Shown here: positions 468-15,928 of the stretch, piece after piece
Numbering within the stretch: position 1 is the stretch's first letter
How the letters are laid out: each line of letters starts with the position of its first letter
Source: Candidatus Poribacteria bacterium
Lineage (GTDB): Bacteria; Poribacteria; WGA-4E; PCPOR2b
NCBI GenBank assembly: GCA_965208675.1
Contig: OZ242351.1
Span: 3,136,001-3,200,000, forward strand
Length of the DNA stretch: 64,000 nucleotides
Direction: 5' to 3'
Translations under genes and position numbers: made by a program
Notes under the pieces: generated by a model
What the model was told of the DNA's origin: nothing
Database searches by the model: none
What the model saw: the letters and a program-made list of their open reading frames with translations, nothing else

Positions 468-479
468 CCAATACGAACA

Positions 480-690: not shown

Positions 691-700
691 AAAGGTAGGG

Positions 701-1048
701 CTAAAACGCGGCGTCATCGCTTTTCGCATGAAAATTGCCGTTGGCATCGAAACCGGAGACCGACGCGTACGCGGAACCGCTGCTGCAACTTACGAGATCT
801 ACAACAGCGGAATCGGAAAGATTATTCCCATTAGCAAACGCGCCGCCATCTTGATCTACCGCGTGGTCAACGCGGGCGCGTACACTATAATAGCCATTTA
901 CAAGACCCCAACCGTTCACTGATGCCGTTGCCCGACATGTATTTTCATCTGCGGTACAGAAGGCGTTAAACGCATACACGCTAACACAAATGACAAGAAT
1001 TGAAATCACAATGGAGCTGCACAACATTACCGAAAATTTCAATTTCAT
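701..1048 (-). CDS. Small secreted Gly/Ser/Ala-rich hypothetical protein (gene B, copy 1)
   Basis: Signal peptide ending VSVYA; RBS AAGGAG; paralog of 14357-14779 (A[FY]NA, GLV[NS]G, SGSAxxxVSGxD). Confidence 0.75.
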   Translation of the reverse strand: MKLKFSVMLCSSIVISILVICVSVYAFNAFCTADENTCRATASVNGWGLVNGYYSVRARVDHAVDQDGGAFANGNNLSDSAVVDLVSCSSGSAYASVSGFDANGNFHAKSDDAAF

Positions 1049-1060
1049 GGAATTCTCCTT

Positions 1061-1687
1061 TTAATTTTGGTAGTCAATAAGAATTGCCGCAGGTTCGTAC
1101 CCGGCGGTTTCGGCGTTTACAATGCTTATGCCGGGGAACTTCGTCTTAAACGCCCCTGACGTTATTTCTTGATCTGTAAAAAGCCTGTCGTAGCTATCGA
1201 CCAACTGATTTACCGTGGTTGTGGCGCCAAGCCGACGGCGAATAAAAGGCATTTCAACAGATTTTCCATTAGCCGCTTGAAGTGTATAACTATCCCACCA
1301 GACATATATCACGTCCGGATAGATTGGGTAAACTCTACCGCTACGAGTTTCAAATATAGCGTTCAAAAAGTCATGGTCGCCCTGATTCCATAATTCGATT
1401 AGGACGCGGTACATTGTTACGTGGTCCGAAAAATCACGCTCCTGAAAATAGTCTTCGAGCCACACCGGCGTCATCGGAAATCCGTCAGGCACTTCAGGAA
1501 AATTACTGATATTTCCATCTTCTCGTTCAACTGACGAGTCTTGAGAAACACGTAAGTCAGGTAATGGTTCACTATTCGTGCCATGCACCCATCGGCTTCC
1601 GAAATTGCTGCCAATCACTATCACCACAGCAAACAATAATGCGCCGCCCAACAAGAGTGTCTGTTTTCTCGTAAACGTGGTTTTCAC
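1061..1687 (-). CDS. N-terminally membrane-anchored hypothetical protein (gene A, copy 1)
   Basis: N-terminal TM segment followed by FGSRW; core NFPEVPDGFP..PVWLED..RVLIELWNQGDH..VYPIY shared with 14798-15580. Confidence 0.8.
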   Translation of the reverse strand: MKTTFTRKQTLLLGGALLFAVVIVIGSNFGSRWVHGTNSEPLPDLRVSQDSSVEREDGNISNFPEVPDGFPMTPVWLEDYFQERDFSDHVTMYRVLIELWNQGDHDFLNAIFETRSGRVYPIYPDVIYVWWDSYTLQAANGKSVEMPFIRRRLGATTTVNQLVDSYDRLFTDQEITSGAFKTKFPGISIVNAETAGYEPAAILIDYQN

Positions 1688-1725
1688 CCTTCCACCTCCG
1701 TCATTTCAGAGAAACTTATGTGAGT

Positions 1726-1745
1726 GCTGCAGACCGTTCTACAGC
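1726..1745 (-). promoter_or_regulatory. Conserved 5'-leader hairpin (further copies at 9397-9416, 9888-9907, 15635-15654)
   Basis: 8-bp stem with an AYGG loop on the mRNA strand; compensatory and G-U changes between the four copies. Confidence 0.65.
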
Positions 1746-1762
1746 TTGTAGTATTGTCTATA

Positions 1763-1778
1763 TGCAAAAGACATGCCA
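1763..1778 (-). promoter_or_regulatory. sigma-54 (-24/-12) promoter
   Basis: Minus strand TGGCATGTCTTTTGCA matches TGGCACG-N4-TTGCW with exact GG-N10-GC spacing. Confidence 0.8.
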
Positions 1779-1822
1779 ATACATATAATCACCTTCATTT
1801 TAGAGGCTCGATTTTGGCTCAT

Positions 1823-2019
1823 AAACCCTTATGTGCAAAGGGATGCGAGAAATTTTATTTTTTTGTTTTGGACGGCATGGCTTTGAATTCCTATGGCAAA
1901 GGATGCGACATTTGTTGACACAATTAAGGGAAATTTGGGGTTCCCGGAGCGTGAAGCCTTACCATACAAGGGTTTTGCGAGCTGTGCGACAAAAGTTGAC
2001 AAAAGCAAAAAATGTCGCA
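1823..2019. promoter_or_regulatory. Putative sigma-54 enhancer region (TGCGACA boxes and IHF-like sites), copy 1
   Basis: TGCGACA-WWW-GTTGACA at 1904 and 1985, inverted TGTCGCA at 2013, AAACCCTT-N-AAGGGA elements; conserved in three copies upstream of sigma-54 promoters. Confidence 0.6.
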
Positions 2020-2156
2020 CCCTATTTTGAAAACGGAATCCTCGCCGGGTAAGTCGGGATGATACAAATATTGAGCAGGAATTAGGCGCAACCATTGAAC
2101 TAACTCCCACGGATTCCATTCGCAAACTATCATGCATTTCGGGTAGCCGAGTTTTT

Positions 2157-2640
2157 GTAGGTTGGGTAGAAATCAACTAAGCGAATAGCGAAGGCGATAG
2201 TCTTTCCGAAACCCAATGCTTTTGAGGCCTCTCTATGTCATAACAGCGTTGGGTGGGGTGAATTCTGGTAGGAGGAAATTCCAATTCCCGACTGTATGTC
2301 TATAACCCCTTCTACCTCCCCCTTGGTAAGGGAGAGGATTAAACTGACAAAACAGCTTTTGTAGGTTGGGTAGAGCGGGTTTGATGAAATATGGGAATTA
2401 TGAGGCATGAGGTTGGTCAGTTGATTGCGTTCAAGAATTGCTAGTGCGCAGCGAAACCCAACGATCAACTGAGCGAATAGCGAAGGCGATAGTCTTATCC
2501 TAACCGCCTCCAACAAACCGAACTCGCCGCAATATCCAAAAGCGTTGGATTGGTTGAATGCTGGTAGGAGGGAATTCCAATTCTCGATGGTCTGTCAACA
2601 ACCCCCTCTAGCTCCCCCTTGGCAAGGGGGAGGATTTTTC
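2157..2640. repeat. Composite REP-like intergenic repeat cluster
   Basis: GTAGGTTGGGTAGA...AACCCAAC arms, two 33-bp motifs (2172, 2463), two CCCCCTTGGYAAGGG hairpins; 2463-2703 is nearly identical to 10330-10570. Confidence 0.8.
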
Positions 2641-2703
2641 TGTATCATTCCCATGTGCGATTGAACTGGACAAATATACGCATTAAAATCCCTGCGTTCG
2701 CGG

Positions 2704-4089
2704 TTACCGCCGTTCGTCAGAAAGCCGAGTACCCGGCATGGCATAGTATTCGCCATTTGTCACTTCGGCGACTCGGCGCTGAAAGACATCCCTTTCGCGT
2801 TGCCGCGGGTGTACGAAACCGCCGATGACGTAAACAATGGCACCGGCTTGGCGGCAAACATCAATTCCCCCGCCGGGGGTGTACCCCTTCTCCCGACGGC
2901 GGCTGGTTGCTTCGTCGGTTACGATAATCAGTACAAGCTGGCGATGCTCTGGCGTGTCGAGCTTGGGGACGCCTTCCATTATGGCGTCGAGCAGGTGTTC
3001 ATCGCCCTCCTTCGGAAGCCGAAATAGCTTCTTGACCTGCTCGGCATCCAACGGCGGTTTCGTCACCACCATTGAGCTTTCTCCTCCGCCTACCCGCGCC
3101 CAAAAGCGGATGACACCGAAACGATAGTCGAGTCCGTTCTCATCAAGCGCATCCGCCAACCTATCCACTCCTGTACATATTTCATCAGTATTAAATCCCA
3201 TGCTGAAGCTGGAGTCGAAGATGAAAACAATATCGGAAGGCGACTTCACCGTTTCGACGAAGTGTTCGCCCATGAGTTCGAAAATCCCGGCGATCCTGAG
3301 AATCCGCTTATCTGTCATAGAGGTTGGCCACCTTCGCTGCTGATATTCATCAATGGGGCGCCACTTGCCTCCGGTTTCCTCAGCCAATTTCATCTGAACC
3401 GCATTATTTACCCCAAAAACGTCAATGTGAATCTCCTCCTGCTTACACTGTTCAACAATTTTACTTGCAAGCTGCTGTATAGCATTCTCCGCGTCCCACG
3501 TGGTTTGCAGGGGCGAATTTGTGACGACAATCAAGTGTTTGCGGGCGTCCAATCTGTAATCCAACTCCCTTAACCCCCACATTATCGCGTCAAGTCCATA
3601 TCCGGTGGAGTGGTCGTGCCGAAAATCGTCGTAAAGGCCTTCATGTACTGCACGCAGGCTGTCAATGAACGGACTGCCTTCGAATTTTGGGCCTCGATGA
3701 TTTTGAAACCAGACGGGCGCTATCTGGTAGTCGACTCCCGACTCCTCGAACATACCCACTAATTCGCCGAGATGTCTTTCAATTTGAACTATCGACGTTT
3801 TCATTTTTTCGCCGCGTTCGATGACAAAGACGATGTCAACCAAGTTATTCTCACTTTGACGGCTGGCGCGGCGAGCGATGCCGACAAGGCTTCTGCCGAC
3901 ATTTACCTTGGTTACTTCCGTTTCTTCCACTTTCGATTCTTTTTTTGGGTTAATCATGATTTTCGATTGCCGGCGCGGCGGTTGGACTTGCGCCCCAGCG
4001 AACGCTGCTAATGCATCAACGACTATCCAGATAGTCAACACCATCAAAGCAATCCCCGATTTCGAGGTGTATCGTTTCAATACAATCAT
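2704..4089 (-). CDS. Secreted protein with two tandem von Willebrand A (VWA) domains (copy 1)
   Basis: DIVFVIERGEKM (degenerate MIDAS) and DIVFIFDSSFSM...IIVTDE (intact DxSxS); start moved to ATG 4089 (RBS AAGGAG); paralog at 10571. Confidence 0.85.
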   Translation of the reverse strand: MIVLKRYTSKSGIALMVLTIWIVVDALAAFAGAQVQPPRRQSKIMINPKKESKVEETEVTKVNVGRSLVGIARRASRQSENNLVDIVFVIERGEKMKTSIVQIERHLGELVGMFEESGVDYQIAPVWFQNHRGPKFEGSPFIDSLRAVHEGLYDDFRHDHSTGYGLDAIMWGLRELDYRLDARKHLIVVTNSPLQTTWDAENAIQQLASKIVEQCKQEEIHIDVFGVNNAVQMKLAEETGGKWRPIDEYQQRRWPTSMTDKRILRIAGIFELMGEHFVETVKSPSDIVFIFDSSFSMGFNTDEICTGVDRLADALDENGLDYRFGVIRFWARVGGGESSMVVTKPPLDAEQVKKLFRLPKEGDEHLLDAIMEGVPKLDTPEHRQLVLIIVTDEATSRRREKGYTPGGGIDVCRQAGAIVYVIGGFVHPRQRERDVFQRRVAEVTNGEYYAMPGTRLSDERR

Positions 4090-4187
4090 TGGATTTTCTC
4101 CTTTCTTGCTGCGCCCAAGTCTAAATTGTGAATGACCGATTGAACTGACTAACCCAACCGACAAGAACGGAAACGTATTGTTCGGTG

Positions 4188-6407
4188 CTACTTAACAACC
4201 GCCATCCACCTTAGCGCGGTGTAATCACCCGCTTCTAGTTGGATGTAATAATTTCCGCTTGTGACGAGTTCGCCGTTTTGGTTTCGGCCGTCCCAATTCG
4301 CAGCACTCGCTTTGTCTCGATAGACTCCCGATACTTGATGTCCAATGTCGAGGGTGCGGACGATATGACCGCTCTGGTCGTAGATGCTTAAGGTTACGAC
4401 TGCATCGTTTGCCAACTGGTACGGTATCCAGGTCTCTGGGTTAAACGGATTCGGATAGTTCTGCAGCAACGCTGTCCGTTTGATGTTTCCCAAGGTGGTG
4501 ACGCGTTTTTCCAGCGGTCTCACCGCTAATTGGATAAAAGAGGAAACGTCCCACAGCAACACGGTGCCGTCCCAGCTCCCACTGGCGAGTGTACGCCCAT
4601 CCGGACTGAACGCAACGCTCCAAACCTCATCAGTATGCCCGTTGAGCGTGCGCAGGTGTTCTCCCGTGTCGGCATCCCATAATCTGACGGTGGCATCATG
4701 ACCGCCGCTAGCTATTGTGCGTCCATCGGGACTGAACGCAACGCTATAAACCCCAAACGCATGCCCGTTGAGTGTGCGGAGGTGTTCTCCGGTATCAACG
4801 TCCCACAATCGAATGGTAGTGTCCCAACTCCCGCTAGCAATCGTATGTCCGTCGGGGCTGAACGCGATGTCGTTTACCTGATTCCTATGTCCGTCAAGCG
4901 TTCGCAGATGTTTACCACCTGCAGTCCACAGGCGGATAGTGTCGTCCCAACTCCCGCTAGCCAGTGTGCGCCCATCGGGACTGTACGCTACGCTATAGAC
5001 GTGGTTCCTATGCCCTTTGAGCGTTCTCCGGTGTTTGCCTTTATTGAGATCCCATAACTGGATAGTGTCGTCCCAACCCCCGCTGGCTAACCTGGTGCCA
5101 TCGGGATTGAACACTACACTATAAACCGTCCCCCAATGCCCAATGAACGTTTGAAGATGTTCTCCCGTTTGCGCATTCCATAATCGGATGGTATCGTCCC
5201 AACTGCCACTGGCGATGGTACGCCCATCGAGACTGAACGCAACGCTCCGGACCCAACTTGAATGTCCGTTGAGAGTTCGGAGGTGTTTTGCTGTACCGGC
5301 GTCCAACAGTCGGATGGTACTGTCCCCGCGACTACCGATTGCTACGGTACGTCCATCCGGGCTAAATGCTAAGCTATTGACCTCGCGTGTATGTCCGCTG
5401 AGTGTTTGGTAGTGCTCCCCCGTGTCAATGTCCCATAATCGGATGGTGCTGTCCCAACTGCCACTGGCTAGCGTACGTCCATCGGTGCTGAAAGCAACGC
5501 TCCAGACCATTCCTTTATGACCATCGAGTGTTTGCAGGTGTTTTCCGGTATCGGCGTCCCACAGCCGGAGGGTACTGTCCCCACTCCCGCTGGCAATGGT
5601 GTGCCCATCAGGACTGAACGCAACGCTCCGGACCGTACCCGTATGCCCGCTGCGCCTTCTCAGAGGTTTTCCCGTATCGGCGTCCCACAACCGGAGGGTT
5701 TTGTCCAAGCTCCCACTTGCGAGGGTACGCCCATCGGGACTGAATGCCACGCTCCAGACCGATTTCGTATGCCCTTTGAGCGTTCGCAGGTGTTCTCCGG
5801 CATCGGCGTCCCACAGCCGGACGGTTTCGTCCGAACTCCCACTTGCGAGGGTTCGTCCATCGGGACTGAATGTGACACTCCAGACATCATCTGTATGCCC
5901 GGTAAACGTACGCAGTTGCTCTCCGGTAGCAGTGTCCCATAGCCGGATCGTAGGTTGCTCACCTCCGCTAGCGATGGTGCGTCCGTCCGGACTGAACGCA
6001 ACGCTATAAACCCAACCCGTGTGTCTAGTAAGCGTTCGCAAGTGTTCACCCGATTCCGCGTCCCACAGCCGGACAGTACGGTCCCAACTCCCGCTTGCGA
6101 TTTTGCGTCCGTCCGGACTGAACGCAACGCTCCAGACTCTACCCGTATGCCCAGTGAACAGTGCGGCCTCTTGATGAGTCACCGTATCGTAAAGCCAAAC
6201 GCCGGTACCGCTAGCGACCGCAAGTCGCGTGCCGTCGGGCGAATGCTGTATTTCATGCATAATGCCTTTACCGAACCTTGCTTTAGCGCCCTCGGGCAGC
6301 CCCCACTGTGGAGAATCTTGGGCGTAACTGTGCGGTAAATATAGAGCGGAAACGAATAAAAAGCTAAGCTTGAAAAACATTACTTTCTTCATTGGAATAA
6401 TCCTCAA
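4188..6407 (-). CDS. Secreted WD40-repeat protein with C-terminal FlgD-Ig/T9SS-CTD-like domain (copy 1)
   Basis: About 13-14 GH..VxSVAFSPDG..ASGS.D.T.RLWD repeats; signal peptide; QNYPNPFNPETWIPYQL...WDGRNQNGE tail. True start may be ATG 6392. Confidence 0.92.
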   Translation of the reverse strand: MRIIPMKKVMFFKLSFLFVSALYLPHSYAQDSPQWGLPEGAKARFGKGIMHEIQHSPDGTRLAVASGTGVWLYDTVTHQEAALFTGHTGRVWSVAFSPDGRKIASGSWDRTVRLWDAESGEHLRTLTRHTGWVYSVAFSPDGRTIASGGEQPTIRLWDTATGEQLRTFTGHTDDVWSVTFSPDGRTLASGSSDETVRLWDADAGEHLRTLKGHTKSVWSVAFSPDGRTLASGSLDKTLRLWDADTGKPLRRRSGHTGTVRSVAFSPDGHTIASGSGDSTLRLWDADTGKHLQTLDGHKGMVWSVAFSTDGRTLASGSWDSTIRLWDIDTGEHYQTLSGHTREVNSLAFSPDGRTVAIGSRGDSTIRLLDAGTAKHLRTLNGHSSWVRSVAFSLDGRTIASGSWDDTIRLWNAQTGEHLQTFIGHWGTVYSVVFNPDGTRLASGGWDDTIQLWDLNKGKHRRTLKGHRNHVYSVAYSPDGRTLASGSWDDTIRLWTAGGKHLRTLDGHRNQVNDIAFSPDGHTIASGSWDTTIRLWDVDTGEHLRTLNGHAFGVYSVAFSPDGRTIASGGHDATVRLWDADTGEHLRTLNGHTDEVWSVAFSPDGRTLASGSWDGTVLLWDVSSFIQLAVRPLEKRVTTLGNIKRTALLQNYPNPFNPETWIPYQLANDAVVTLSIYDQSGHIVRTLDIGHQVSGVYRDKASAANWDGRNQNGELVTSGNYYIQLEAGDYTALRWMAVVK

Positions 6408-6420
6408 TATTTCCAGAATA

Positions 6421-6574
6421 ATTAGGACTTACGCAGTTCAGTTTGTAGTAGCGCAATTTATTGCGCGTCCTGCAGGTCGTTTACTTCCTTGACTTGACAT
6501 ATTGTTTTATGTAGAAACGGGCAATAAATTGCCCTACTACGAACCTTTGGACATCCAACTGCGTAACTCCTAAT
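6421..6574. mobile_element. MITE-like element with terminal inverted repeats enclosing a GTAG-type REP doublet
   Basis: ATTAGGACTTACGCAGTT (6421-6438) / AACTGCGTAACTCCTAAT (6557-6574), 1 mismatch; internal inverted pair GTAGTAGCGCAATTTATTGCGCGT (6445) / ACGGGCAATAAATTGCCCTACTAC (6517). Confidence 0.65.
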
Positions 6575-6661
6575 AACAAGAAAAACACAGAATTTGCCCA
6601 CAAATCTCAAACGATGGAAATAACGAATAGCGAATCAGTAGACGTATCATGGTAGACCTCG

Positions 6662-7486
6662 TTATTCCTCCACACAATCGTAGGCATCGGGGCTGTGTAT
6701 CTGGTTGTATTCCGCAATTTGCACATCAATTGCACGGGGCGCATCGTCAATATGAACTATCCAATCTTTGTATTTCGATTCGACAGGCAAGCCATCCACT
6801 TCATCTACCCATATGTAGGCAGCACCCAATTCGCTAAGAACATATGGGATTTTTACCTTGCCCTTATCGCGAAACTTCTTTTCTATCTGATCTGCTATGG
6901 CTCGGCGCTTCGCATCGATCCACGGTTCGGCAGGGCTATTGGACAAAGCCTCAGTTGCCGTGACTCTCGTGATCACCTCTCCACGCTGTCCATGCTTCCG
7001 CTCGTATAGCTTCAGCAGTCTTAAGAATTTCGCTCTATTGTAGATAACAGTGTACCCGGTTGCTGGGACATAGCGGAATAGCACTTCTACGTCGGGATCA
7101 ATAAACCAAGACCTCACTTTGATTCTGCTCTTTCGGTCATACGTAGCCGCAGGATGAGGCAGTCCCTTGGCGAGATTATAAACCCTTTCCGACACAGTAT
7201 TCTTCAGCTCCAAATCAACCTCATTATGAGCAATCTGTGTACCAAGACGTACATTTGCGTCTCCTTGAGCATGACAGAAATCGTACATGTATTGAAGAAC
7301 GGCATCATACTCAGGCTCAGTCATATCCGCTCGAATATGGGCATAACTTTCAATAAGCGCATGTGGAAATTCTGTCGGAACTTTATCCTTTACCACCGGC
7401 TCCGGTTCCCTCGGAATTGGTGTTTCGGTTTCGCTGCAAGCCAAGCACATCACTAAGATGGCAGTGAGAATCAATACCCGTGTCAT
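6662..7486 (-). CDS. Hypothetical lipoprotein
   Basis: ATG 7486 with RBS GGAGG; MTRVLILTAILVMCLAC lipobox-like signal followed by a Pro/Glu linker. Confidence 0.7.
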   Translation of the reverse strand: MTRVLILTAILVMCLACSETETPIPREPEPVVKDKVPTEFPHALIESYAHIRADMTEPEYDAVLQYMYDFCHAQGDANVRLGTQIAHNEVDLELKNTVSERVYNLAKGLPHPAATYDRKSRIKVRSWFIDPDVEVLFRYVPATGYTVIYNRAKFLRLLKLYERKHGQRGEVITRVTATEALSNSPAEPWIDAKRRAIADQIEKKFRDKGKVKIPYVLSELGAAYIWVDEVDGLPVESKYKDWIVHIDDAPRAIDVQIAEYNQIHSPDAYDCVEE

Positions 7487-8538: not shown

Positions 8539-9348
8539 TCACACTTTATCATTTAAAAGGTACGATTTCATCACTGCTTTGAGGTTGTTCGATCTCGAAA
8601 GCCAACCGGGGAGAGCACTCGCATAAAAAGAATTTTGCTTTGCTAGAGTTTTTAAGAATTCGCGCTTATGAAAATCAAACTCCAAGAAAACCTTCCACGC
8701 ATATTCCGGTTCCTCTTTCAGTGCTGCGTCAATGTTATTGTTGAATTTCTTGACTGCTAAGGCGGTACGCGTTTTCCAAATTCCATCCGGTTCCACATTC
8801 ACCAGTTTCTGAATAACCCGTGTCGCATTCGCACCCGCAAGCGTAGCAAAATCTGCATATCCAGCTTGCAAGCTCGGATGAACGTCCCAGCAATTATAAC
8901 GTTCAAAATAATCTCGGTAAAACCTCTTTATTACCTCCAGATTTGCATCGGTCAAAGCCAGTGCATCTTGACTCGTGTTTGTGCGCCCTAAGCGGATTAC
9001 ATTTGCGGGCAGGTGCGCTTTATCACCTTGTTTATTCCGCCATTCCATCCACGCGACAGCCGTTATGCCCGCGTAAGAAACCCCGCCAACATGTGCGGGT
9101 TCATGGATATTCAGCCCGGTTTCATGCCTCAGGATGAACCTTAAAGCAACATCTCGTGAAAGAGACGCGTGGACAAGGCTATTCATTTTGGCAAATTGCA
9201 GATCGTTCGACAATAATCGTTCTGGTACAGCTTTCATATCGCGGCCATTGAGCCAGCGGATTCCGAAATAACCGCCTGCAATCAATAGCGCTGAAATCAA
9301 AACCGATCCGCATACCAACAGTTTTTGTCTAATCGAGAACATTAACAT
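8539..9348 (-). CDS. Membrane-anchored glycoside hydrolase family 108 (N-acetylmuramidase-like) protein with peptidoglycan-binding C-terminus
   Basis: ALRFILRHETG..EPAHVGGVSYAGIT resembles the GH108 HEGG..DP.D.GG.T..GIT pattern; DFATLAG..IQKLVNVEPDG and GWLSR match the C-terminal part. Confidence 0.7.
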   Translation of the reverse strand: MLMFSIRQKLLVCGSVLISALLIAGGYFGIRWLNGRDMKAVPERLLSNDLQFAKMNSLVHASLSRDVALRFILRHETGLNIHEPAHVGGVSYAGITAVAWMEWRNKQGDKAHLPANVIRLGRTNTSQDALALTDANLEVIKRFYRDYFERYNCWDVHPSLQAGYADFATLAGANATRVIQKLVNVEPDGIWKTRTALAVKKFNNNIDAALKEEPEYAWKVFLEFDFHKREFLKTLAKQNSFYASALPGWLSRSNNLKAVMKSYLLNDKV

Positions 9349-9444
9349 CACCTTCCTCACTCTATCAATCCTCGCTTGAGGGAAATTTATGTGAGCACCG
9401 CGGACCATTCCGCAGTTCAAAGTGTTACCAATGGCTATCTTATA

Positions 9445-9460
9445 AGTAAATTGTGTGCCA
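9445..9460 (-). promoter_or_regulatory. Degenerate sigma-54 promoter
   Basis: TGGCACACAATTTACT: intact -24 element, -12 GC changed to AC; homologous to 9937-9952. Confidence 0.5.
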
Positions 9461-9721
9461 ATCTGAATACGCTCACGCTATTAGCATACGCCATTGTCTA
9501 TCTTTACTTGGAACCTCTCAAGGCAATTAGTAGTTTGCAGTCGTCTTACGATATATAACCTGCAACCTAGGATTTTGCCTTTTTAGGTACCGCTTAATTA
9601 TCTTGCGAAAATATCTATGGGTCTTGCGTTTAGCGTTCAAGTCGTCACCCCCGTTTAGTTAACCTTTTTTAGTGAAGCCCATGTAGTATCGAACGTTAAT
9701 TTTTTCACCAGGATAATGCTG

Positions 9722-9837
9722 CTAGTAGGTCTTACGTACTGCTACCGGCTCCACATAGTGGAACCGGCGACTTCCGAAATAGCTGCCGCAATCAATCCGC
9801 ATAGCAACTATTTCTGTCTAATCGTAAACATGGACAT
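9722..9837 (-). pseudogene. Decayed 5' fragment of a gene-A-type membrane anchor gene
   Basis: MSMFTIRQK then TAG, followed by frameshifted GSYFGSR; aligns to the 5' end of 8539-9348. Confidence 0.7.
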
Positions 9838-9936
9838 CACCTTCCTCACCCTGTCAATCCTCGCTCTTGCGAGAAATTTATGTCACCACTGCGGACCGTT
9901 CCGCAGTTCAAAGAGCTACTTAATGGGTATTTCATA

Positions 9937-9952
9937 AGCAAATTGCGTGCCA
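9937..9952 (-). promoter_or_regulatory. sigma-54 (-24/-12) promoter
   Basis: TGGCACGCAATTTGCT, perfect consensus. Confidence 0.85.
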
Positions 9953-9994
9953 AGACGAATAACCCCGTACAATTTAAGCTCCGATTTGACTCGG

Positions 9995-10194
9995 AAACCC
10001 TTGTGTGTCAAGGGATACGGGCAGTTAATTTTTTTCAGACTGAAACGGCAGCGTCCTGACGGGGCAGGCAAAGGGGGTGCAACATTTGTTTACAAAAATC
10101 GGGAAAATTGGGGGAAAAATAGCGCGTGAAACCTTGCTAGGTAAGGGTTTTGGGGGATGTGCGACAAAAGTTGACAAAAGCAAAAAATGTCGCA
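9995..10194. promoter_or_regulatory. Putative sigma-54 enhancer region, copy 2
   Basis: TGCAACATTTGTTTACA (10078); TGCGACAAAAGTTGACAAAAGCAAAAAATGTCGCA (10160-10194) identical to copies 1 and 3. Confidence 0.6.
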
Positions 10195-10315
10195 CCCTAT
10201 TTTGAAGACGGAAGCGTCAGCGGACACGGCGGAATGATACAAAATGGAGCAGGAATTGGGTGCTATGGTACGCAAACTCACCTGTATTTCGGATAACTGA
10301 AAGGTGAAAGCTCTT

Positions 10316-10503
10316 GTAGGTTGGGTAGAGATCAACTGAGCGAATAGCGAAGGCGATAGTCTTATCCGTACCGCCTCCAACAAACCGAACTCGCCGCAAT
10401 ATCCAAAAGCGTTGGATTGGTTGAATTCTGGTAGGCGGGAACTCCAATTCCCGACTGTATGTCTATAACCCCCTCTAGCTCCCCCTTGGTAAGGGGGAGG
10501 ATT
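10316..10503. repeat. Composite REP-like intergenic repeat
   Basis: Same modules as 2157-2640. Confidence 0.8.
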
Positions 10504-10570
10504 TTTCTGTATCATTCCCATGTGCAATTGATCTTGACAAATTAACGCATTAAAATCCCTGCGTTCGCGG

Positions 10571-11947
10571 TTACCATCGTTCGTCAGAAAATTGAGCATT
10601 TGGCAGGGCATAGTGTTCACCTTTTGTTACCTCAGGGGCGCGTCGCTGAAAGACATCCCTTTCGCTATGCCGCGGATGTTCATAACCGCCAATGACATAA
10701 ACAATGGCACCGGATTGGCGGCAAACGCTAATCGCCATATCCGGTGTGTATCCCCTCTCGCGGCGGCGGCTGGTCGGTTCATCCGTTACGATCATGAGGA
10801 CAAGTTGGCGATCCGCAGGCGTTTGAAGCTTGGGGACGCCTTCGATAATTGCATCGAGCAGGTGTTCATCGCCTTCCTTCGGCAGCTGGAATAACTTCTT
10901 GACCTGCACAGCATCTAACGGCGGTTTCGTCACCACGATTGAGCTTTCTCCCCCGCCTACTCGCGCCCAAAACCGGATAACCCCGAAACGATAGTCGAGT
11001 CCTCCTTCATCTAGGGTTTCCGCCAAAACATCAAATCCACCGCAAATATCTTCGACATCGGCTTTCATGCTAAAGCTGGAATCGAAGACGAAGACGATAT
11101 CGGCAGATTGCTTCGCCGCCGGAATCATGTGTTCGCCAATGAGTTCGAAAATCCCGCCAATTCTTTGAATCCGCTTATCCAAATATGAGGGTGTTCTTCG
11201 TACCTGCTGGTATTCGTCAACTGCGTACCACTTCCCGCCGGTCTCCTCCGCCAACTGTAGTTGCACGGCTTCATTTACCCCAATAACATTGATGTGAACA
11301 TCATCCTGCACACACCGCTCAATTATCTGATTGGTACGTTGCTGTGTTGCATTTGGTGCTTTCCATGCCGTCTGCAACGGGGAATTTGTGACGACAATCA
11401 TGTGCTTGGCGGCATCCGATCTGTAGTTCAACTCCCTTACCCCCCACATCATCGCCTCAAGTCCATATCCGGTCAAATGACTGCCTCGAAATTGTGTGTA
11501 GAAACTATCCTGGATAGCACGAAAGTCGTTCCTGAATTCGCTGCCCTCAAATTTTCCACCGCCCTGATTTTGAAACCAGACTGGCGCTATCCGGTAGTCG
11601 ACCCCCGACTCCTCGAACACACTCACCATATTGTCAAGCTGTTCTTCAATCTCCGCAATCGCCGCTTTCATCGTCTCGCCGTGTTCAATGACATAGACGA
11701 AATCAACCATCTTTTCCTTACCCTGACGGCTGGCGCGGCGTGTAATGCCGAGGAGGCTTTTACCAATATTAATCTCTGTTTTCTGCGCTTTTGCCTCATT
11801 TTTTGGACTGACCATAACTCGCCGCTTACGGCGCGGCGGCTGCACTCGTGCTTCGGCAATCGCTGAAAACCCATCAACACCAATCCAGATTGTCAGCATC
11901 ATTAAAGCCATTCCAGATTTCAATTTGACTGGTTTCAACATGTTCAT
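10571..11947 (-). CDS. Secreted double-VWA domain protein (copy 2)
   Basis: DIVFVFDSSFSM MIDAS, IVTDE; RFWARVGGGESS identical to copy 1; start ATG 11947 (RBS GGAAGGAG). Confidence 0.85.
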   Translation of the reverse strand: MNMLKPVKLKSGMALMMLTIWIGVDGFSAIAEARVQPPRRKRRVMVSPKNEAKAQKTEINIGKSLLGITRRASRQGKEKMVDFVYVIEHGETMKAAIAEIEEQLDNMVSVFEESGVDYRIAPVWFQNQGGGKFEGSEFRNDFRAIQDSFYTQFRGSHLTGYGLEAMMWGVRELNYRSDAAKHMIVVTNSPLQTAWKAPNATQQRTNQIIERCVQDDVHINVIGVNEAVQLQLAEETGGKWYAVDEYQQVRRTPSYLDKRIQRIGGIFELIGEHMIPAAKQSADIVFVFDSSFSMKADVEDICGGFDVLAETLDEGGLDYRFGVIRFWARVGGGESSIVVTKPPLDAVQVKKLFQLPKEGDEHLLDAIIEGVPKLQTPADRQLVLMIVTDEPTSRRRERGYTPDMAISVCRQSGAIVYVIGGYEHPRHSERDVFQRRAPEVTKGEHYALPNAQFSDERW

Positions 11948-12065
11948 TGATGCACTCTCCTTCCGTTCCGCTCTAGTCACGGCGGGTTACACTGCAATTC
12001 TCCCTGGCCGTAGCGACGAAATTCTGATTTTCGAATTACTGGTTTATCACTCCTACGGTACGGGC

Positions 12066-14267
12066 CTACTTGACAACCACCATCCGCCGTGTCGAGCTGT
12101 GATCGCCCGCCGCGAGTTGAATGTAATACGTTCCGCTTGTGACGGGTTCTCCGTTTTGGTTGCGGCCGTCCCAATGCGCTGCGCTGGCTTTGTCTCGGTA
12201 GACGCCCGATGGTTGATGCCCAATGTCGAGGGTGCGGACGATATGACCGCGCTGGTCGTAGATGCTAAAGGTTACGACCGAATCGTCCGCCAACTGATAA
12301 GGTATCCAAGTCTCCGGGTTGAACGGATTCGGATAATTTTGCAGCAACGCTGTCCGTTTGATGTTTCCCAAGGTTGTTATGCGTCGTTCCGACGGTTCCA
12401 CCGCTAATTGGATTGAAGACTCAACTTCCCACAATAACACCGTGCCGTCCTGACTCCCGCTCGCCAGTGTGCGTCCATCAGGACTGAACGCCACGCTCTC
12501 GACCGGAGCTGTATGCCCTTTGAGTGTCCGCCGGTGTTTTCCGGTTTCAATGTCCCACAGTCGGATAGTATTGTCCTCGCTTCCACTAGCGATGGTCTCT
12601 CCATCGGGACTGAACGCCACGCTCTCGACCGGAGCTGTATGCCCTTTGAGTGTCCGCCGGTGTTTTCCGGTTTCAATGTCCCACAGTTGGACCGTACCGT
12701 TGATACTTCCGCTAACGATGGTGTTTCCATCGGGACTGAACGCAACACTTTCGACTTGAAGTGCATGCTCCATGAGTGTTTTCAGGTGTTTTCCGGTATC
12801 AGCGTTCCACAGCCGGATGGTATCGTCCTTGCTTCCACTAGCGATGGTTTTTCCATCGGGACTAAACACAACACTTAGGACGAACCATTCATGCCCCTTG
12901 AGCGTTTGCTGATGTTCTCCGGTATCGGCGTTCCACAGCCGGATATCTTCCCAATTCCCGCTAGCGATGGTCTTTCCATCGGGACTAAACACAACGCTGG
13001 AGACCCAACCTGAGAGCGTTTTCAGGTGTTTTCCGGTATCAGCGTTCCACAGCCGGATGGTATCGTCCAAGCTACCACTGGCGAGTATGTGTCCATCGGG
13101 ACTAAACGCTACACTGTCGACCCAATCTGTATGCCCCATGAGTGTTCTCAAATGTTTTCCGGTATCAGCGTTCCACAGCCGGATATCTTCCCAATTCCCG
13201 CTAGCGATGGTCTTTCCATCGGGACTAAACGCAACGCTTTCGACTGGAGTTGTATGTCCCATGAGTGTTTTCAGTTGTTTTCCGGTATCAACGTTCCAAA
13301 GGCGGATGGTACCGTCCAAACTCCCGCTGGTGATGGCGGTTCCATTGGGACTAAACGCCATACTTTCGACGCAAGTTGAATGCCCGGTGAGCGTTTGCTG
13401 GTGCTCTCCGGTATGAGCGTTCCACAGTTGGATTTCATCCCAATTCCCGCTAGCGATGGTCTTTCCATCGGGACTGAACGCAACGCTGGAGACCCAATGC
13501 CTATGCCCCTTGAGCGTTTTAAGAGTTTTCAAGTGTTCTCCGGCATGGGCGTTCCACAGGCGTATGGTATGGTCCCCGCTCCCGCTAGCGATGGTTTTTC
13601 CGTCGGGACTAAACGCAACGCTTGAGACCCAATCTGTATGCCCGATGAGCGTTTGCTGGTGTTTGCCGGTATGAGCGCTCCACAAGCGGATGGTGCTGTC
13701 CCGACTCCCACTCACGATTGTGTTTCCGTCGGGACTGAATGCAACGGTTTCGACCCCATCTGAATGCCCGTCCAACGTTCGCTGGTGTTTTCTGCCAAAT
13801 GTGTTCCACAGGCGGATGGTACCGTCCTTGCTCCCGCTAGCGACGGTTTTTCCATCGGGACTAAACGCAACGCTTGAGACCCAATCTGTATGCCCCTTGA
13901 ATTTTTGCTGGTGTCTTCCGCTATCAGCGCTCCACAGGCGGACGGTATTGTCCACGCTTCCACTAGCGATGGTTTTTCCATCGGGACTAAACGCAACGCT
14001 ACTGACCGAATGCATATTTCTAGTGAGCAGAGCAACCTCTTGATGAGTCGCCGTATCGTAGAGCCATATTCCGATACTGCTGGCAACCGCAAGGCGGGTG
14101 CCGTCGGGCGAATACTGTATTTCATTTATCACACCTTTACCGAGGCGCGCTTGGGCGCCCTTGGGCAGCCCCCATAGCGGAAAATCTTGGGCGCCGCCGG
14201 GCGGTACGCACAGCACGGAAATAAAAAAGGATAATAGGCTAAGCTTGAAAATCATTGCTTTCTCCAA
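12066..14267 (-). CDS. Secreted WD40-repeat protein with C-terminal FlgD-Ig/T9SS-CTD-like domain (copy 2)
   Basis: WD40 repeats, signal peptide, and QNYPNPFNPETWIPYQL tail nearly identical to copy 1. Confidence 0.92.
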   Translation of the reverse strand: MEKAMIFKLSLLSFFISVLCVPPGGAQDFPLWGLPKGAQARLGKGVINEIQYSPDGTRLAVASSIGIWLYDTATHQEVALLTRNMHSVSSVAFSPDGKTIASGSVDNTVRLWSADSGRHQQKFKGHTDWVSSVAFSPDGKTVASGSKDGTIRLWNTFGRKHQRTLDGHSDGVETVAFSPDGNTIVSGSRDSTIRLWSAHTGKHQQTLIGHTDWVSSVAFSPDGKTIASGSGDHTIRLWNAHAGEHLKTLKTLKGHRHWVSSVAFSPDGKTIASGNWDEIQLWNAHTGEHQQTLTGHSTCVESMAFSPNGTAITSGSLDGTIRLWNVDTGKQLKTLMGHTTPVESVAFSPDGKTIASGNWEDIRLWNADTGKHLRTLMGHTDWVDSVAFSPDGHILASGSLDDTIRLWNADTGKHLKTLSGWVSSVVFSPDGKTIASGNWEDIRLWNADTGEHQQTLKGHEWFVLSVVFSPDGKTIASGSKDDTIRLWNADTGKHLKTLMEHALQVESVAFSPDGNTIVSGSINGTVQLWDIETGKHRRTLKGHTAPVESVAFSPDGETIASGSEDNTIRLWDIETGKHRRTLKGHTAPVESVAFSPDGRTLASGSQDGTVLLWEVESSIQLAVEPSERRITTLGNIKRTALLQNYPNPFNPETWIPYQLADDSVVTFSIYDQRGHIVRTLDIGHQPSGVYRDKASAAHWDGRNQNGEPVTSGTYYIQLAAGDHSSTRRMVVVK

Positions 14268-14356
14268 TCGTTAAATGCGGTGGTCAGTGTCCAGTTGCCA
14301 GCAAATGCTATTCACTGGCAACTGGACACGCGTTTTCGCGTAGTGATGCGTTGTTT

Positions 14357-14779
14357 CTAATCCTCGCCTTCTGGCGGAGTGATTACGTGCGATGTCTTTT
14401 CACTAAACGACTTTCTAGTTGCATTGTACCGCACGTCATGTGTTCGTTTATGATGCCAGTTATGCACATCTCTACCACTCACATAACCACTTGCACTGCC
14501 GCTCTTATTATCCGCTCCTCCCATGGAAACGGATACACTCGCTACCGTCCCGGGGTGGATAGTGTCACTATCACTATCGGATTTATTTCCAATACTAACT
14601 GACGCTTTGACTGTTCCGGACACAAGCCCAGTGCTGTTCGCTCCGCCAGTTAGCGAAATGGTTCCAGCAGTCGCATTGCGGCTCCCGCTAGCCCAAGCGT
14701 TATACGCACTTACGCTAATACAAACAATTAGGGAGGTAAACACAAAAATACTCAACGTGACCAACACTTTCACTTTCAT
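14357..14779 (-). CDS. Small secreted Gly/Ser-rich hypothetical protein (gene B, copy 2)
   Basis: Signal peptide ending VSVSA-like ISVSA|YNA; RBS AAGGAG; paralog of 701-1048. Confidence 0.75.
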   Translation of the reverse strand: MKVKVLVTLSIFVFTSLIVCISVSAYNAWASGSRNATAGTISLTGGANSTGLVSGTVKASVSIGNKSDSDSDTIHPGTVASVSVSMGGADNKSGSASGYVSGRDVHNWHHKRTHDVRYNATRKSFSEKTSHVITPPEGED

Positions 14780-14797
14780 GGTATTCTCCTTTTTGTT

Positions 14798-15580
14798 TTA
14801 GTAGTCGTTAAGAACAGTTGCCGGGTCATAACCGGCATCACTGTAATCAACAAAGGTTACATCGGGATGCATCGTCACATAAGCGCCCGACATTAATTCT
14901 TCCACTGTAAAAAGATTCCCATCTTCATTGAGTAATGGCTCAACCGTGCTTGAAATACCAAGTCTGTAGCTAATATACGGCACCTCAAGCGACTCTCCAT
15001 TGAGGTTTTCACCAACGTAACTATCCCACTCAACATAAACCACATCGTGATAGATTGGGTACACCTTACCGGTATCTTCATCAAGAACACCGTATACAAT
15101 TTCGTGGTCTCCCTGATTCCACAATTCTATCAAGACACGGTCAATTATCACATGGTCGGCGTGAAGAATCTCGTCAAAAAAGTCTTCGAGCCAAACTGGT
15201 CTAATGTTTGATGGAAACCCTTCAGGCACATCAGGGAAATTCTTCCCTTCATCCTTTTCAAGTGAGGACAGGGTGTCAGCAAGAGTCGTTGACTCGTCAT
15301 TGCCAAGAAAATCTTGCAGAGTTTCCGACTCTTCATGAGTGATGTTGTTTTGCCCCGGTTCGAGTTGTGATTCAGACATTGATGGGGCATCTTGAGTAAC
15401 AGAAGCGCAGGCAGGACAATTCATCTGTCCGGCATACCGTTTGGCAGTCAACAGGTGTTCCGGCACGGGATTCACATCCGGACCATGTAACCAGCGGCTT
15501 CCGAAATAGCTGCCTGCAACCAGTAACACCGCGAACAAAACTGTGGCGCCCACTACAAGTCTCTGTTTACTCGTTAACAT
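14798..15580 (-). CDS. N-terminally membrane-anchored hypothetical protein (gene A, copy 2)
   Basis: Start moved to ATG 15580 because the longer ORF start lies in the sigma-54 promoter; TM + YFGSRW; core shared with 1061-1687. Confidence 0.8.
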   Translation of the reverse strand: MLTSKQRLVVGATVLFAVLLVAGSYFGSRWLHGPDVNPVPEHLLTAKRYAGQMNCPACASVTQDAPSMSESQLEPGQNNITHEESETLQDFLGNDESTTLADTLSSLEKDEGKNFPDVPEGFPSNIRPVWLEDFFDEILHADHVIIDRVLIELWNQGDHEIVYGVLDEDTGKVYPIYHDVVYVEWDSYVGENLNGESLEVPYISYRLGISSTVEPLLNEDGNLFTVEELMSGAYVTMHPDVTFVDYSDAGYDPATVLNDY

Positions 15581-15671
15581 TGTTATCACCTTTCTACCGC
15601 TGTCTCTTCTTGGTTGAGAGGAATTTATGTGACCGCTGCAGACCGTTCTGCAGCTTGTGATATTGTCTATA

Positions 15672-15687
15672 AGCAAAATACATGCCA
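15672..15687 (-). promoter_or_regulatory. sigma-54 (-24/-12) promoter
   Basis: TGGCATGTATTTTGCT with exact spacing. Confidence 0.8.
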
Positions 15688-15729
15688 ATACATATAGTCA
15701 CCGTCATTTTAGGTGCGGTTTTGGCGAAT

Positions 15730-15928
15730 AAACCCTGATGTATCAAGGGATACGGGCAATTTTATTTTTTTTGGTTAGGGACGGCATAGCTTTGAATGCC
15801 TATGGCAATGGATGCGACATTTGTTGACACAATTGAAGGAAATTTGGGGTTGCCGGCGCGTGAAGCCTTGCCACACAAGGGTTTTGGGGGATGTGCGACA
15901 AAAGTTGACAAAAGCAAAAAATGTCGCA
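15730..15928. promoter_or_regulatory. Putative sigma-54 enhancer region, copy 3
   Basis: TATCAAGGGATAC (IHF-like); TGCGACA boxes at 15813 and 15894, inverted at 15922. Confidence 0.6.

Follow-up and report, generated by a model that had tools for sequence, protein, structure and literature searches.

The repeated upstream regions found in the window, the whole stretch of 64,000 nt of Candidatus Poribacteria DNA that was analysed, are probably best explained as belonging to a family of sigma-54-dependent enhancer-promoter modules specific to the genus, to which a GH108 muramidase gene would have been recruited by a 5'-end graft. The observation behind this, made in a first-pass annotation of the window and comprising -24/-12 sites, a conserved leader, an N-terminal anchor and a common upstream block, was confirmed. 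Its interpretation changed in several respects.

Four -24/-12 sites in the window

The minus strand was searched for the pattern TGGCAC-N5-TTGC, with mismatches counted per site. All four sites of the first-pass annotation were found in place, and the copy at 9446 was degenerate as claimed.

1764–1778, minus strand, w1 -24/-12 element, one mismatch
9446–9460, minus strand, w2 -24/-12 relic, one mismatch that kills the -12 GC (reads TGGCAC..TTTAC), without enhancer
9938–9952, minus strand, w3 -24/-12 element, perfect match
15673–15687, minus strand, w4 -24/-12 element, one mismatch

Both dinucleotides (GG and GC) are kept at three of the four sites, while the GC is gone at 9446. The motif count is weak by itself, with 83 matches in the window (up to two mismatches) against 63.4 ± 8.0 after shuffling, a value reached by 1 of 100 shuffles. 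Position is decisive instead, because every site occupies the equivalent spot of a conserved module. The upstream block of ~200 nt with its TGCGACA/TGTCGCA boxes is kept in w1, w3 and w4 and absent at 9446, and the conserved leader was recovered as the window repeat families D11, D12 and D16. A sigma-54 gene, rpoN, is present in the genome (PF04552 with 198.8 bits, 578-aa open frame) together with 23 matches to PF00158, and a candidate NtrC-type activator is encoded in the same locus. With the GG/GC elements kept, this agrees with the proposed sigma-54 control; the window sites very probably act as sigma-54 promoters served by activator sites upstream and would depend on sigma-54 in vivo.

Architecture and conservation of the module

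The module has a length of ~270 nt and is followed downstream by a leader hairpin of ~20 nt. From 5' to 3' it consists of three N6-ATTT-N6 activator sites (about -250 to -145), a palindrome CCTTG-N5-CAAGG, an A-tract and a conserved box of 37 nt (about -110 to -60) and the element TGGCA-N6-TTGC. Three such modules lie in the window.

1758–2024, minus strand, module w1, boxes at 2005–2019 and 1896–1910, nhmmer E 5.6e-69
9930–10199, minus strand, module w3, complete with perfect -24/-12 element, nhmmer E 2e-77
15666–15934, minus strand, module w4, three enhancer sites with half-site GTCGCA, boxes at 15914–15928 and 15805–15819, nhmmer E 1e-73

Module w4 also carries the CCTTG..CAAGG palindrome, the A-tract and the conserved box. 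The IHF-like sites that had been suggested for the upstream block were not recovered: the consensus WATCAANNNNTTR has no match with up to one mismatch inside w1, w3 and w4, the genome contains a single gene of the HU/IHF family, and the usual position of IHF is filled by the A-tract and the conserved box.

The locus is a visible tandem segmental duplication with a spacing of ~7.87 kb, and the similarity might be a leftover of such fairly recent duplications, with -24/-12 look-alikes that are not used. Paralogous modules are 60–75% identical overall compared to 60–73% at four-fold degenerate sites of co-duplicated activator genes, and orthologous modules of species G000 and G002 share 84–91% identity with 85.8% at four-fold sites. 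Module identity does not exceed that of four-fold sites and thus much of the apparent conservation mirrors the age of the duplicates. However, the seven positions TGG and TTGC of the -24/-12 element do not vary in any of the 34 aligned modules, which come from four species and have a median pairwise identity of 66%. Conservation was also uneven and block-wise rather than evenly spread: over 561 module pairs, identity was 79.6% in the box, 78.4% in the A-tract and 76.7% in the -24/-12 element, but 53% in the spacers and 42–47% in the flanks. Moreover, the half-sites shift in step at three separate sites, and the sole copy without enhancer is also the one without the -12 GC. A mere duplication residue is therefore very unlikely, and it is solely the block pattern and the co-variation of the half-sites that argue for selection on the modules.

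Distribution and spread of the module family

In this genome, nhmmer detected 10 copies at E ≤ 7e-45 and three more at E ≤ 1.5e-9. With a model of the 103-nt core, the copy numbers in the genus's four species were 14 (this genome), 11, 13 and 22, and the 117 further genomes searched from the order yielded no full-length module. What had been described as a four-copy local cassette is actually one branch of a genus-wide family with 11 to 22 modules per genome. Most modules precede genes without the anchor. In most of the 37 copies inspected, the first reading frame of at least 50 aa begins within ~300 nt downstream; module u2 has no gene downstream. For w1, w4, u1 and u4, the nearest relative is a module of species G002 (84–91% identity) and not a paralog from this genome, and copies predate the split of G000 and G002 and lie at orthologous places. 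REP-like repeats are abundant in the genome and adjoin modules; positions 2030–2760 of the window gave 315 BLAST hits.

A family of this size, often found before unrelated genes in a genome rich in REP-like repeats, may also be taken for a self-propagating repeat or 'mobile promoter' that is not tied to one regulatory system and whose promoter activity is incidental. Promoter reuse independent of the downstream gene has already been described for putative mobile promoters in prokaryotes (PMC3575422), with highly similar promoter regions before non-homologous genes and rewired regulation. Compared to these, the unit found here is a complete enhancer-dependent module, has orthologs between species and in 15 of 38 cases comes with an activator gene. 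The fixed distance of these 15 copies behind one activator subfamily, the gene downstream of most inspected copies, half-sites that co-vary by class and the age of the copies all speak against a mobile repeat, and terminal inverted repeats were not noticed in the module alignments, so that we regard it as unlikely. The sigma-54 module family would rather have spread via duplication of kinase-activator-module units, and later rearrangements and deletions past the leader hairpin would have brought different first genes behind orthologous modules.

The leader hairpin

Each of the four -24/-12 sites is followed by a leader with a palindrome of 7-6-7 layout.

1726–1745, minus strand, w1 leader hairpin, including one U-G wobble pair
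9397–9416, minus strand, w2 leader hairpin, after the relic -24/-12
9750–9907, minus strand, w3 leader and anchor remnant, with hairpin at 9888–9907, ATG at 9829–9831, in-frame TAG at 9808–9810 and an internal deletion
15635–15654, minus strand, w4 leader hairpin, 7-bp stem with loop AACGGT

Among the aligned hairpins, 93.6% of the cells are paired compared to 88.1% after shuffling, a level that none of 500 shuffles reached the upper value of 93.6%; a DNA operator with a palindrome would give a similar picture. One pair is split into AU (11) and GC (8) with three U-G cells; this split may go back to a single inherited event.

The palindrome might instead be an integron-like recombination site at which downstream gene cassettes are swapped, as the ~90% homology of orthologous modules from two species (w1 with L024, w4 with L023) ends at or just past the hairpin and is followed by different genes. 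However, the break points are scattered over ~60 nt (about -3, 0, +14, +14, +18 and +55 from the 3' edge of the hairpin), and four loci are simple internal deletions, with the leader fused to the final ~12 codons of the X gene. The locus showed no recombinase gene, which together with the scattered break points differs from integron cassette exchange. The three single-sided changes are U-G wobbles, more easily reconciled with an RNA stem than with a DNA site. Cassette exchange at the palindrome is thus extremely unlikely.

Enhancer classes and kinase-activator pairs

The half-sites of the three enhancer sites co-vary and fall into at least five classes, with the half-sites GTCGCA, GTTGCA, GTCACA, GGCGCA, GTGTC/GTTTAC and GGCTAC. 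The four classes in this genome match one-to-one with the four adjacent full-length paralogous activators. Fifteen of 38 modules begin 64–92 nt past the stop codon of an activator gene from one subfamily; these activators are paired with a PAS-kinase, and the kinase-activator pairs are paralogous to each other. Two further modules, w4 among them, follow decayed 3' remnants of such an activator gene.

15989–16255, minus strand, activator-gene remnant (NtrC-type, 3' end, Fis-type HTH-like stretch), just upstream of w4
2–403, minus strand, start of a soluble PAS-PAS histidine kinase of 545 aa that extends to the left beyond the window

The remnant (267 nt) shares 67% identity with the 3' end of an activator gene that lies at genome positions 3320210–3321637. 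The kinase/activator pair of the locus straddles the left edge of the window: the kinase is followed downstream by a REC-AAA+-HTH_8 activator of 477 aa (PF00072 89 bits, PF00158 190.8 bits, PF02954 36.8 bits) and, outside the window, by a fifth unit of module, X, S and WD40 genes. The domain scan of this kinase covered only the PAS start of its 545 aa. Two paralogous kinases comprise two PAS domains and HATPase_c, while HisKA is weak (20.3 bits, cut-off 26.9). The sigma-54-contacting loop is canonically GAFTGA; it reads GAYTGA in both activators inspected, a variant that may be functional.

The activator beside the window most likely serves the GTCGCA/GTTGCA class, namely w1, w3 and w4 as well as u1 just outside the window. 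It probably also feeds back on itself, because the activator and kinase genes sit downstream of w1-X1-S1. The assignment of activators to classes is putative. Species G001, with modules from classes B, C and D, encodes only a single full-length activator of the subfamily, so the rule of one class per activator fails across the genus; one type of activator C-terminus adjoins class B at three loci and class C at one.

The soluble PAS-PAS histidine kinase would phosphorylate its NtrC-type partner (REC-AAA+-HTH_8), which would then occupy the three enhancer sites and remodel the sigma-54 holoenzyme sitting on the -24/-12 element. This resembles the NtrB/NtrC control of sigma-54 promoters in the GG-N10-GC element, in several dyad-like activator sites 100–250 nt upstream, in a REC-AAA+-HTH_8 activator and a PAS histidine kinase encoded beside their targets and in the presence of rpoN. 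It differs in that the modules hold one long common scaffold (A-tract, 37-nt box, palindrome) with at least five co-varying half-site classes, and in the lack of the IHF consensus, the one HU/IHF-family gene and the GAYTGA loop.

The anchor and protein family X

The N-terminal anchor motif was present at the start of all four genes, and the cargo behind it was correctly listed as a domain of unknown type plus a small secreted protein (twice), a GH108 domain (once) and a pseudogene (once).

1061–1687, minus strand, X1, anchor and X domain, 208 aa, short linker
701–1048, minus strand, small protein S1, 115 aa
14798–15580, minus strand, X4, anchor, acidic linker and X domain, 260 aa, no Pfam match
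14357–14779, minus strand, small protein S4, 140 aa, conserved hydrophobic N-terminus

The anchor profile matched four intact genes and one remnant in the genome, all within ~20 kb. At the decayed remnant (about 9750–9831), it gave an E-value of 0.21. Sequence comparison identifies the anchor as the native N-terminus of a single lineage-specific family of proteins, X. For this family, 92 relatives were found, and 40 of them were aligned with three genes of this genome (43 sequences). The N-termini among those inspected included anchor-bearing ones, the lipoprotein-signal type and other TM segments.

According to the first-pass annotation, promoter, leader and anchor form a dedicated platform that captures new effector domains, like polymorphic toxin/effector loci. 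This finds some support in the GH108 chimera, which is real and kept in at least three sequence clusters, and in the anchor-profile matches P0106 and P0111/P0113, which align to X only over residues 1 to ~100 and have C-terminal parts unrelated to X. However, three of the four intact anchors in this genome bear the same X domain. The search of 1.84 billion proteins returned just 17 representative anchor clusters at E ≤ 0.001, and most of the 12 that were fetched and read are X-family members or fragments. Four cargo types occur among the 17 clusters, two of them beyond this genome and from metagenomes. The third type sits in another Poribacteria lineage without an upstream module and thus, anchor and promoter are not an obligate unit. 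The locus showed neither a toxin/immunity signature nor orphan cargo modules arranged in tandem, and the anchor-bearing proteins differ from polymorphic effector systems as they have neither many C-terminal domains nor visible immunity-like partners. A dedicated capture platform is hence doubtful, and the anchor, an ordinary family-X N-terminus, is no free one. Swapping of cargo did take place in the GH108 graft, but it is rare, with one event in this genome and two further types in metagenomes.

The GH108 chimera and the decayed copy

8539–9348, minus strand, chimeric gene, X-family anchor and linker (~residues 1–62) joined to GH108 muramidase / PG_binding_3
9461–9705, minus strand, 240-nt non-coding element, sharing 87% identity with the sequence that follows module u5 at another genomic site

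The chimeric gene matched PF05838 with 33.2 bits (cut-off 21.2) and PF09374 with 17.2 bits, the latter below its cut-off. All eight relatives of the GH108 domain contained PF05838, while a ninth match had only the anchor in common. Three clusters (100%, 94% and 76% identity) show the anchor-chimeric form and five a different native TM segment, with the junction near residue 62. The native GH108 gene occurs as one copy per species in all four species, this genome included, and has no module upstream. Within this genome, chimera and native copy are 83% identical over residues 64–267, and the C-terminal 205 residues of the chimera are 80–83% identical to the native GH108 of each species of the genus. 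The chimera thus resembles membrane-anchored GH108 muramidases (PF05838 and PG_binding_3) in this part, but it carries the X anchor and linker in place of the native TM segment and sits behind a module. Together with the unfused native paralog, it bears out the claim that promoter, leader and anchor were grafted onto a foreign enzyme domain. By these alignments, the gene descends from a second copy of the membrane-anchored housekeeping muramidase, in which the original anchor gave way to the promoter, leader and anchor of X together with ~25 linker residues. A cell-wall hydrolase under the same switch could plausibly make local openings in the wall for the surface proteins being induced.

The promoter of the GH108 operon is probably w3, whereas w2 at 9446, with its broken -12 and absent enhancer, is a relic. 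The homology of the 240-nt element between them stops exactly at the next TGGCAC. Unitigs of four DNA runs from one sample cover 8400–10343 with 0 differences, TAG stop included, which is not independent support because the sample may be the assembly's own source.

Genes behind the modules and the proposed regulon

Besides the X/S pairs and the chimera, the locus encodes the following proteins.

2704–4164, minus strand, VWA-domain protein A (domain scan)
4188–6407, minus strand, WD40 double-propeller protein A with T9SS-type C-terminal sorting domain
6662–7570, minus strand, lipoprotein of a lineage-specific family with paralogs behind other modules
7615–8493, minus strand, LamG / concanavalin-like secreted protein (domain scan)
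10571–11980, minus strand, VWA-domain protein B (domain scan)
12066–14267, minus strand, WD40 double-propeller protein B, paralog of A

The T9SS-type tail was tested on WD40 protein A (TIGR04183 27.4 bits, cut-off 23). Genes behind modules overwhelmingly encode proteins that are exported or held by a lipid or membrane anchor; a peptidoglycan hydrolase is also among the products. The module output comprises X/S pairs, T9SS-tailed WD40, VWA and LamG proteins, a cadherin giant and FGE-sulfatase-like enzymes. This is in line with the suggestion of a co-induced set of membrane-anchored and secreted proteins, and the output resembles an inducible programme for the cell surface of a sponge symbiont. 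The physiology of the module system as a whole is a prediction from sequence.

Sigma-54 has been called the controller of the bacterial exterior (Francke et al. 2011, PMC3162934), in a work that concerns how envelope polymers are made and transported in cultured phyla. The module targets are similar in being mostly exported or anchored proteins and a peptidoglycan hydrolase. They differ from the targets treated there as they are lineage-specific and eukaryote-like (WD40, VWA, LamG, cadherin) and belong to an uncultured sponge symbiont. A literature search joining Poribacteria with sigma-54 regulation found no study.

A wider reading can be offered only tentatively. The genus might have built parallel, mutually insulated sigma-54 switches on one scaffold, with only the half-sites rewritten, jointly at all three sites, to match diverging kinase-activator pairs. 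These switches might govern eukaryote-like surface proteins (WD40, cadherin, VWA, LamG) that presumably mediate interaction with the host, and new genes, the spare muramidase for example, might be recruited by grafts of promoter, leader and anchor.

If the modules function as read, the GH108 chimera, whose unfused paralog persists in the same genome, would be a clean example of how replacing a 5' end rewires both regulation and topology. The modules would also define, for an uncultured lineage, a regulon that is concrete and open to testing, with promoters, activator sites and candidate sensors, and would provide a natural case in which enhancer specificity was re-coded while the rest of the promoter stayed constant. 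This would bear on the avoidance of cross-talk among paralogous NtrC-type systems and would offer ready parts for orthogonal sigma-54 circuits. For sponge symbionts, the module family would help to address the question of how their many eukaryote-like surface proteins are regulated.

Putative sigma-54 sites and anchor genes

Four sites matching or resembling TGGCAC-N5-TTGC were located in the window:

1764-1778, minus: TGGCAC-N5-TTGC-like site, one mismatch (w1)
9446-9460, minus: TGGCAC-N5-TTGC-like site, one mismatch that abolishes the -12 GC (w2)
9938-9952, minus: TGGCAC-N5-TTGC site, perfect (w3)
15673-15687, minus: TGGCAC-N5-TTGC-like site, one mismatch (w4)

The bare motif is little proof of a -24/-12 element: with up to two mismatches it was found 83 times in the window and 63.4 ± 8.0 times in shuffled sequences. 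The four sites are meaningful because each occupies the same position within a repeated block. Upstream of w1, w3 and w4, about 200 nt of common sequence with TGCGACA/TGTCGCA boxes were found, while w2 has only the promoter, leader and gene start in common with the other copies. The reading frame behind each site and its leader begins with a basic stretch, one transmembrane helix and the motif (Y/N)FG(S/I)RW, referred to here as the anchor. In the fourth anchor frame, a deletion and a TAG at 9808-9810 interrupt the coding sequence. Pfam assigned a GH108 (muramidase) domain to the 269-aa protein and no family to the 208-aa and 260-aa proteins or their small neighbours. The sites, the shared leader and gene start, the upstream block in three copies and the cargo list were thus as described in the first-pass annotation. 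DNA unitigs aligned to the window agree with the assembled sequence, and their depth rises to ∼2,200-5,700 at 10325-10401. The modules are flanked by REP-like repeats (455-553, 2242-2340, 2538-2636 and 10405-10503) that carry a CTCCCCCTTGG(Y)AAGGGGGAG hairpin, and the stretch 2030-2760 gave 315 BLAST hits across the genome.

A genus-wide module family

The source genome is a single contig of 4.89 Mb. A profile of the block from enhancer to -12 element, hereafter the module, detected ten strong copies (E ≤ 7e-45) and three weaker ones. Among the strong copies is u1, located 2.7 kb to the left of the window; the genes behind it are another anchor gene, the fifth, one for a small protein and one for a WD40 protein. 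With a sequence-only model of 103 promoter-proximal positions, 14, 11, 13 and 22 copies were counted in the four species of the genus. The search also covered 117 further genomes of the order, and in these the model found no full-length module; matches in a genus of another family (g11) span only the promoter-proximal model positions 51-102. The sites that had been read as a four-copy cassette are real, but they are not a local unit and belong to a genus-wide family of 11-22 copies per species.

Two copies in the source genome are identical (genome positions 3321718-3321988, plus strand, and 3948863-3949133, minus strand), and each precedes the same 678-aa gene, whose product combines UshA-like, glutaredoxin and membrane domains. 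The activator gene ahead of the module is complete in one case and truncated (255-aa frame) in the other. The pair is a recent inverted segmental duplication, its copies ∼627 kb apart. At another locus (L047, genome 1931084-1932382), two partial modules consisting of the promoter-proximal half only precede tandem paralogs of a His-rich lipoprotein family with HEH/HDH repeats.

Module anatomy and conservation

The upstream part of the module contains three sites of the form N6-ATTT-N6, whose half-sites co-vary within a module. They fall into the following classes:

GTCGCA: w1, w3, w4
GTTGCA: u1
GTCACA, GGCGCA, GTGTC/GTTTAC and GGCTAC: other copies

Since the same replacements occur at three separate sites, selection to match one binding protein is indicated, and the pattern is hard to explain otherwise. 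A CCTTG-N5-CAAGG palindrome, an A-tract and a 37-nt box lie between these enhancer sites and the promoter. In the promoter itself, TGG and TTGC are invariant in 34 of 34 aligned copies from four species, at a median pairwise identity of 66% for the block. Conservation is unevenly distributed along it.

Mean pairwise identity of module parts over 561 module pairs
37-nt box: 79.6%
A-tract: 78.4%
-24/-12: 76.7%
Spacers: about 53%
Flanks: 42-47%

When modules of three different classes (u1, d1 and u4) were compared, the enhancer sites were the least conserved part with 51-64%, and one scaffold block reached 94.6%. The first-pass annotation had set even conservation, as from simple recent duplication, against conservation concentrated on the boxes; the concentration in blocks favours function. 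The length of the similarity has another explanation. Paralogous modules are 60-75% identical, and four-fold degenerate sites of the co-duplicated activator genes 60-73%; for orthologous modules of the source species (G000) and its relative G002 the values are 84-91% and 85.8%, respectively. Module identity is no higher than that of four-fold sites, so how old the duplicates are suffices to account for the long similarity. Only three arguments for function are left: conservation in blocks, invariance at the -24/-12 positions and half-sites that change together. A conserved ORF within the module was rejected, as indels of 1 nt and more between classes disrupt every frame. The IHF-like sites proposed earlier were not borne out, for no IHF consensus was found inside the modules and the genome holds a single HU/IHF-family gene.

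Activators and enhancer classes

The rpoN gene, which the first-pass annotation had expected of a sigma-54 system, is present in the genome, together with 23 matches to the sigma-54 interaction domain. Four full-length genes and a truncated one form an activator subfamily with at least 58% mutual identity; the next activators follow at 38%. The three activators scanned with Pfam have the architecture REC-AAA+-HTH_8, each preceded by a kinase gene, and the two kinases scanned contain PAS-PAS and HATPase_c without a transmembrane segment. Both subfamily activators printed, including the one at L041:13329-14762, have GAYTGA in place of the canonical GAFTGA sigma-54 contact loop.

One kinase-activator pair straddles the left edge of the window. 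Its kinase starts at 403, downstream of w1, X1 and S1 (the first anchor gene and its small neighbour), and its activator gene ends 81 nt ahead of u1. Of the 38 modules in the four genomes, 15 begin 64-92 nt past the stop codon of a subfamily activator, and two more, w4 included, follow decayed 3' activator remnants. From this adjacency, an ancestral unit of kinase, activator, module and target can be deduced. Four enhancer classes pair one-to-one with four adjacent activators in the source genome. A genus-wide one-to-one match between recognition helix and enhancer class was rejected because it fails in species G001, with three enhancer classes versus only one full-length subfamily activator. 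One type of activator C-terminus also adjoins two different enhancer classes. At locus L045 (genome 1023899-1028396), a GTGTC/GTTTAC-class module lies upstream of a paralogous kinase-activator operon, an arrangement that suggests auto-activation or a cascade between paralogous systems.

Leader hairpin and downstream genes

About 25-35 nt past the -12 element, the leader contains a 7-bp stem with an invariant AACGGT-type loop (20 copies, four species). The hairpin cells are paired in 93.6% of cases compared to 88.1% in shuffles, a value reached by none of 500 shuffles. At one position of the stem, 11 copies have an AU pair and 8 a GC pair, a split that may be a single inherited event, and three one-sided changes are U-G wobbles. 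This pairing pattern favours an RNA hairpin. Rfam gave no match at E ≤ 1 for window positions 1-17000, and a terminator scan of the minus-strand gene strings returned nothing convincing, with counts at shuffle level.

The hairpin is retained behind modules of four enhancer classes and before different first genes, namely, X, S, WD40 and a His-rich secreted family. Orthologous modules of G000 and G002 lose their homology at the hairpin or just past it, and the genes behind them differ. An integron-like reading was rejected, as the break points near the hairpin are scattered and several are simple X-gene deletions. We read the change of downstream genes as probable ordinary rearrangement, filtered by retention of promoter and hairpin, and not as site-specific exchange. 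In four loci of sister species (L023, L017, L035 and L037), the leader is fused straight to what remains of the X gene, its last ∼12 codons, which makes S the first gene; in two of them, S is followed by an X domain that has a lipoprotein signal. X and S thus stay paired despite changed order and anchor.

Family X and its anchor

Across the genome, an anchor profile detected nothing beyond four intact genes and the remnant at w3. Family X, to which X1 and X4 of the window belong, has 92 relatives, none with a Pfam domain, and all named ones are hypothetical proteins of Candidatus Poribacteria. Forty relatives were aligned with three genes from the source genome, and the N-termini listed have this same anchor, a lipoprotein signal or another transmembrane helix. 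On the basis of these N-termini and the genome-wide count, the anchor is the native N-terminus of family X.

The X domain had no hit in Pfam or NCBIfam. Its AlphaFold model has a pLDDT above 90 for residues 115-257; the best Foldseek match against the PDB had an E-value of 0.6, and a protein atlas search gave no usable match. The wide VIA-align search reached Z 3.4 at best (3.1 for the X domain itself), but its list is filled with matches to the transmembrane helix, so that it barely probed the domain alone. According to the model, the X domain is a confidently predicted fold without a solved-structure match in the searches run.

Against 1.84 billion representative proteins, the anchor profile had 17 hits, which include two additional types of C-terminal part without relation to X. 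One of these two occurs in other Poribacteria with no module upstream; for the Y cargo (P0106), no genomic context was matched in the genome or metagenome contigs searched. Given the few cargo types and the module-free case, anchor swapping is real but infrequent and not tied to the promoter. The swappable cargo proposed earlier holds to this extent, with the GH108 fusion and two more cargo types in its favour.

The GH108 chimera and the w3/w2 region

GH108 relatives come in two forms, with the X anchor and linker in three clusters and another transmembrane segment in five. The latter form occurs once in each of four species, this genome included, where it lies between unrelated genes without a module upstream and is 83% identical to the window gene over residues 64-267. 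The junction of the chimera is near residue 62. The two forms and the native paralog identify the window gene as a duplicated housekeeping muramidase gene that has exchanged its own 5' end for the promoter, leader, anchor and linker of X.

The full enhancer and perfect promoter of w3 are followed only by a dead anchor stub, while w2 lacks the enhancer and the -12 GC. The GH108 operon (GH108, LamG, lipoprotein, WD40, VWA) would most likely be transcribed from w3 via a long leader. A 240-nt non-coding element (9461-9705, minus) separates the stub of w3 from the relic promoter w2. It is 87% identical to non-coding sequence behind module u5 (genome 917680-917919), the homology stopping exactly at the TGGCAC of w2, and has a further copy at the G002 ortholog of u5 (L070, G002:863264-863509). 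Behind u5 and this ortholog, it lies 100-340 nt past the module without an ORF. The element could be a module-driven non-coding RNA; a structured RNA was rejected, as the folding z-score of -1.09 is not significant.

Putative targets of the module family

The genes behind modules encode X/S pairs, VWA proteins, a LamG protein, lipoproteins, FGE-sulfatase-like enzymes, WD40 double propellers with a T9SS-type C-terminal domain, the UshA-like/glutaredoxin/membrane fusion protein, a cadherin-repeat protein longer than 1,800 aa and one kinase-activator operon. Nearly all of these proteins are exported or membrane-bound. A C-terminus resembling FlgD_ig or T9SS type A sorting domains was seen in two WD40 proteins (4188-6407 and 12066-14267) and in a PhoX phosphatase (16739-18469); TIGR04183 scored 27.4 bits on WD40-A. 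This stands out, since the lineage is not known for a type IX system.

The observation itself was confirmed and its first interpretation partly supported. Judged from sequence, the system appears to be NtrC-type, sigma-54-dependent control, and its apparent distinctive features are the unusually conserved shared scaffold, the re-coded enhancer sites and one clean promoter-plus-anchor graft. All expression and physiology of the module family is inferred. The literature search found no publication on sigma-54 regulation in Poribacteria. Sigma-54 is regarded as a controller of the cell exterior in PMC3162934, and the mostly exported or membrane-bound targets of the modules fit the view expressed there.
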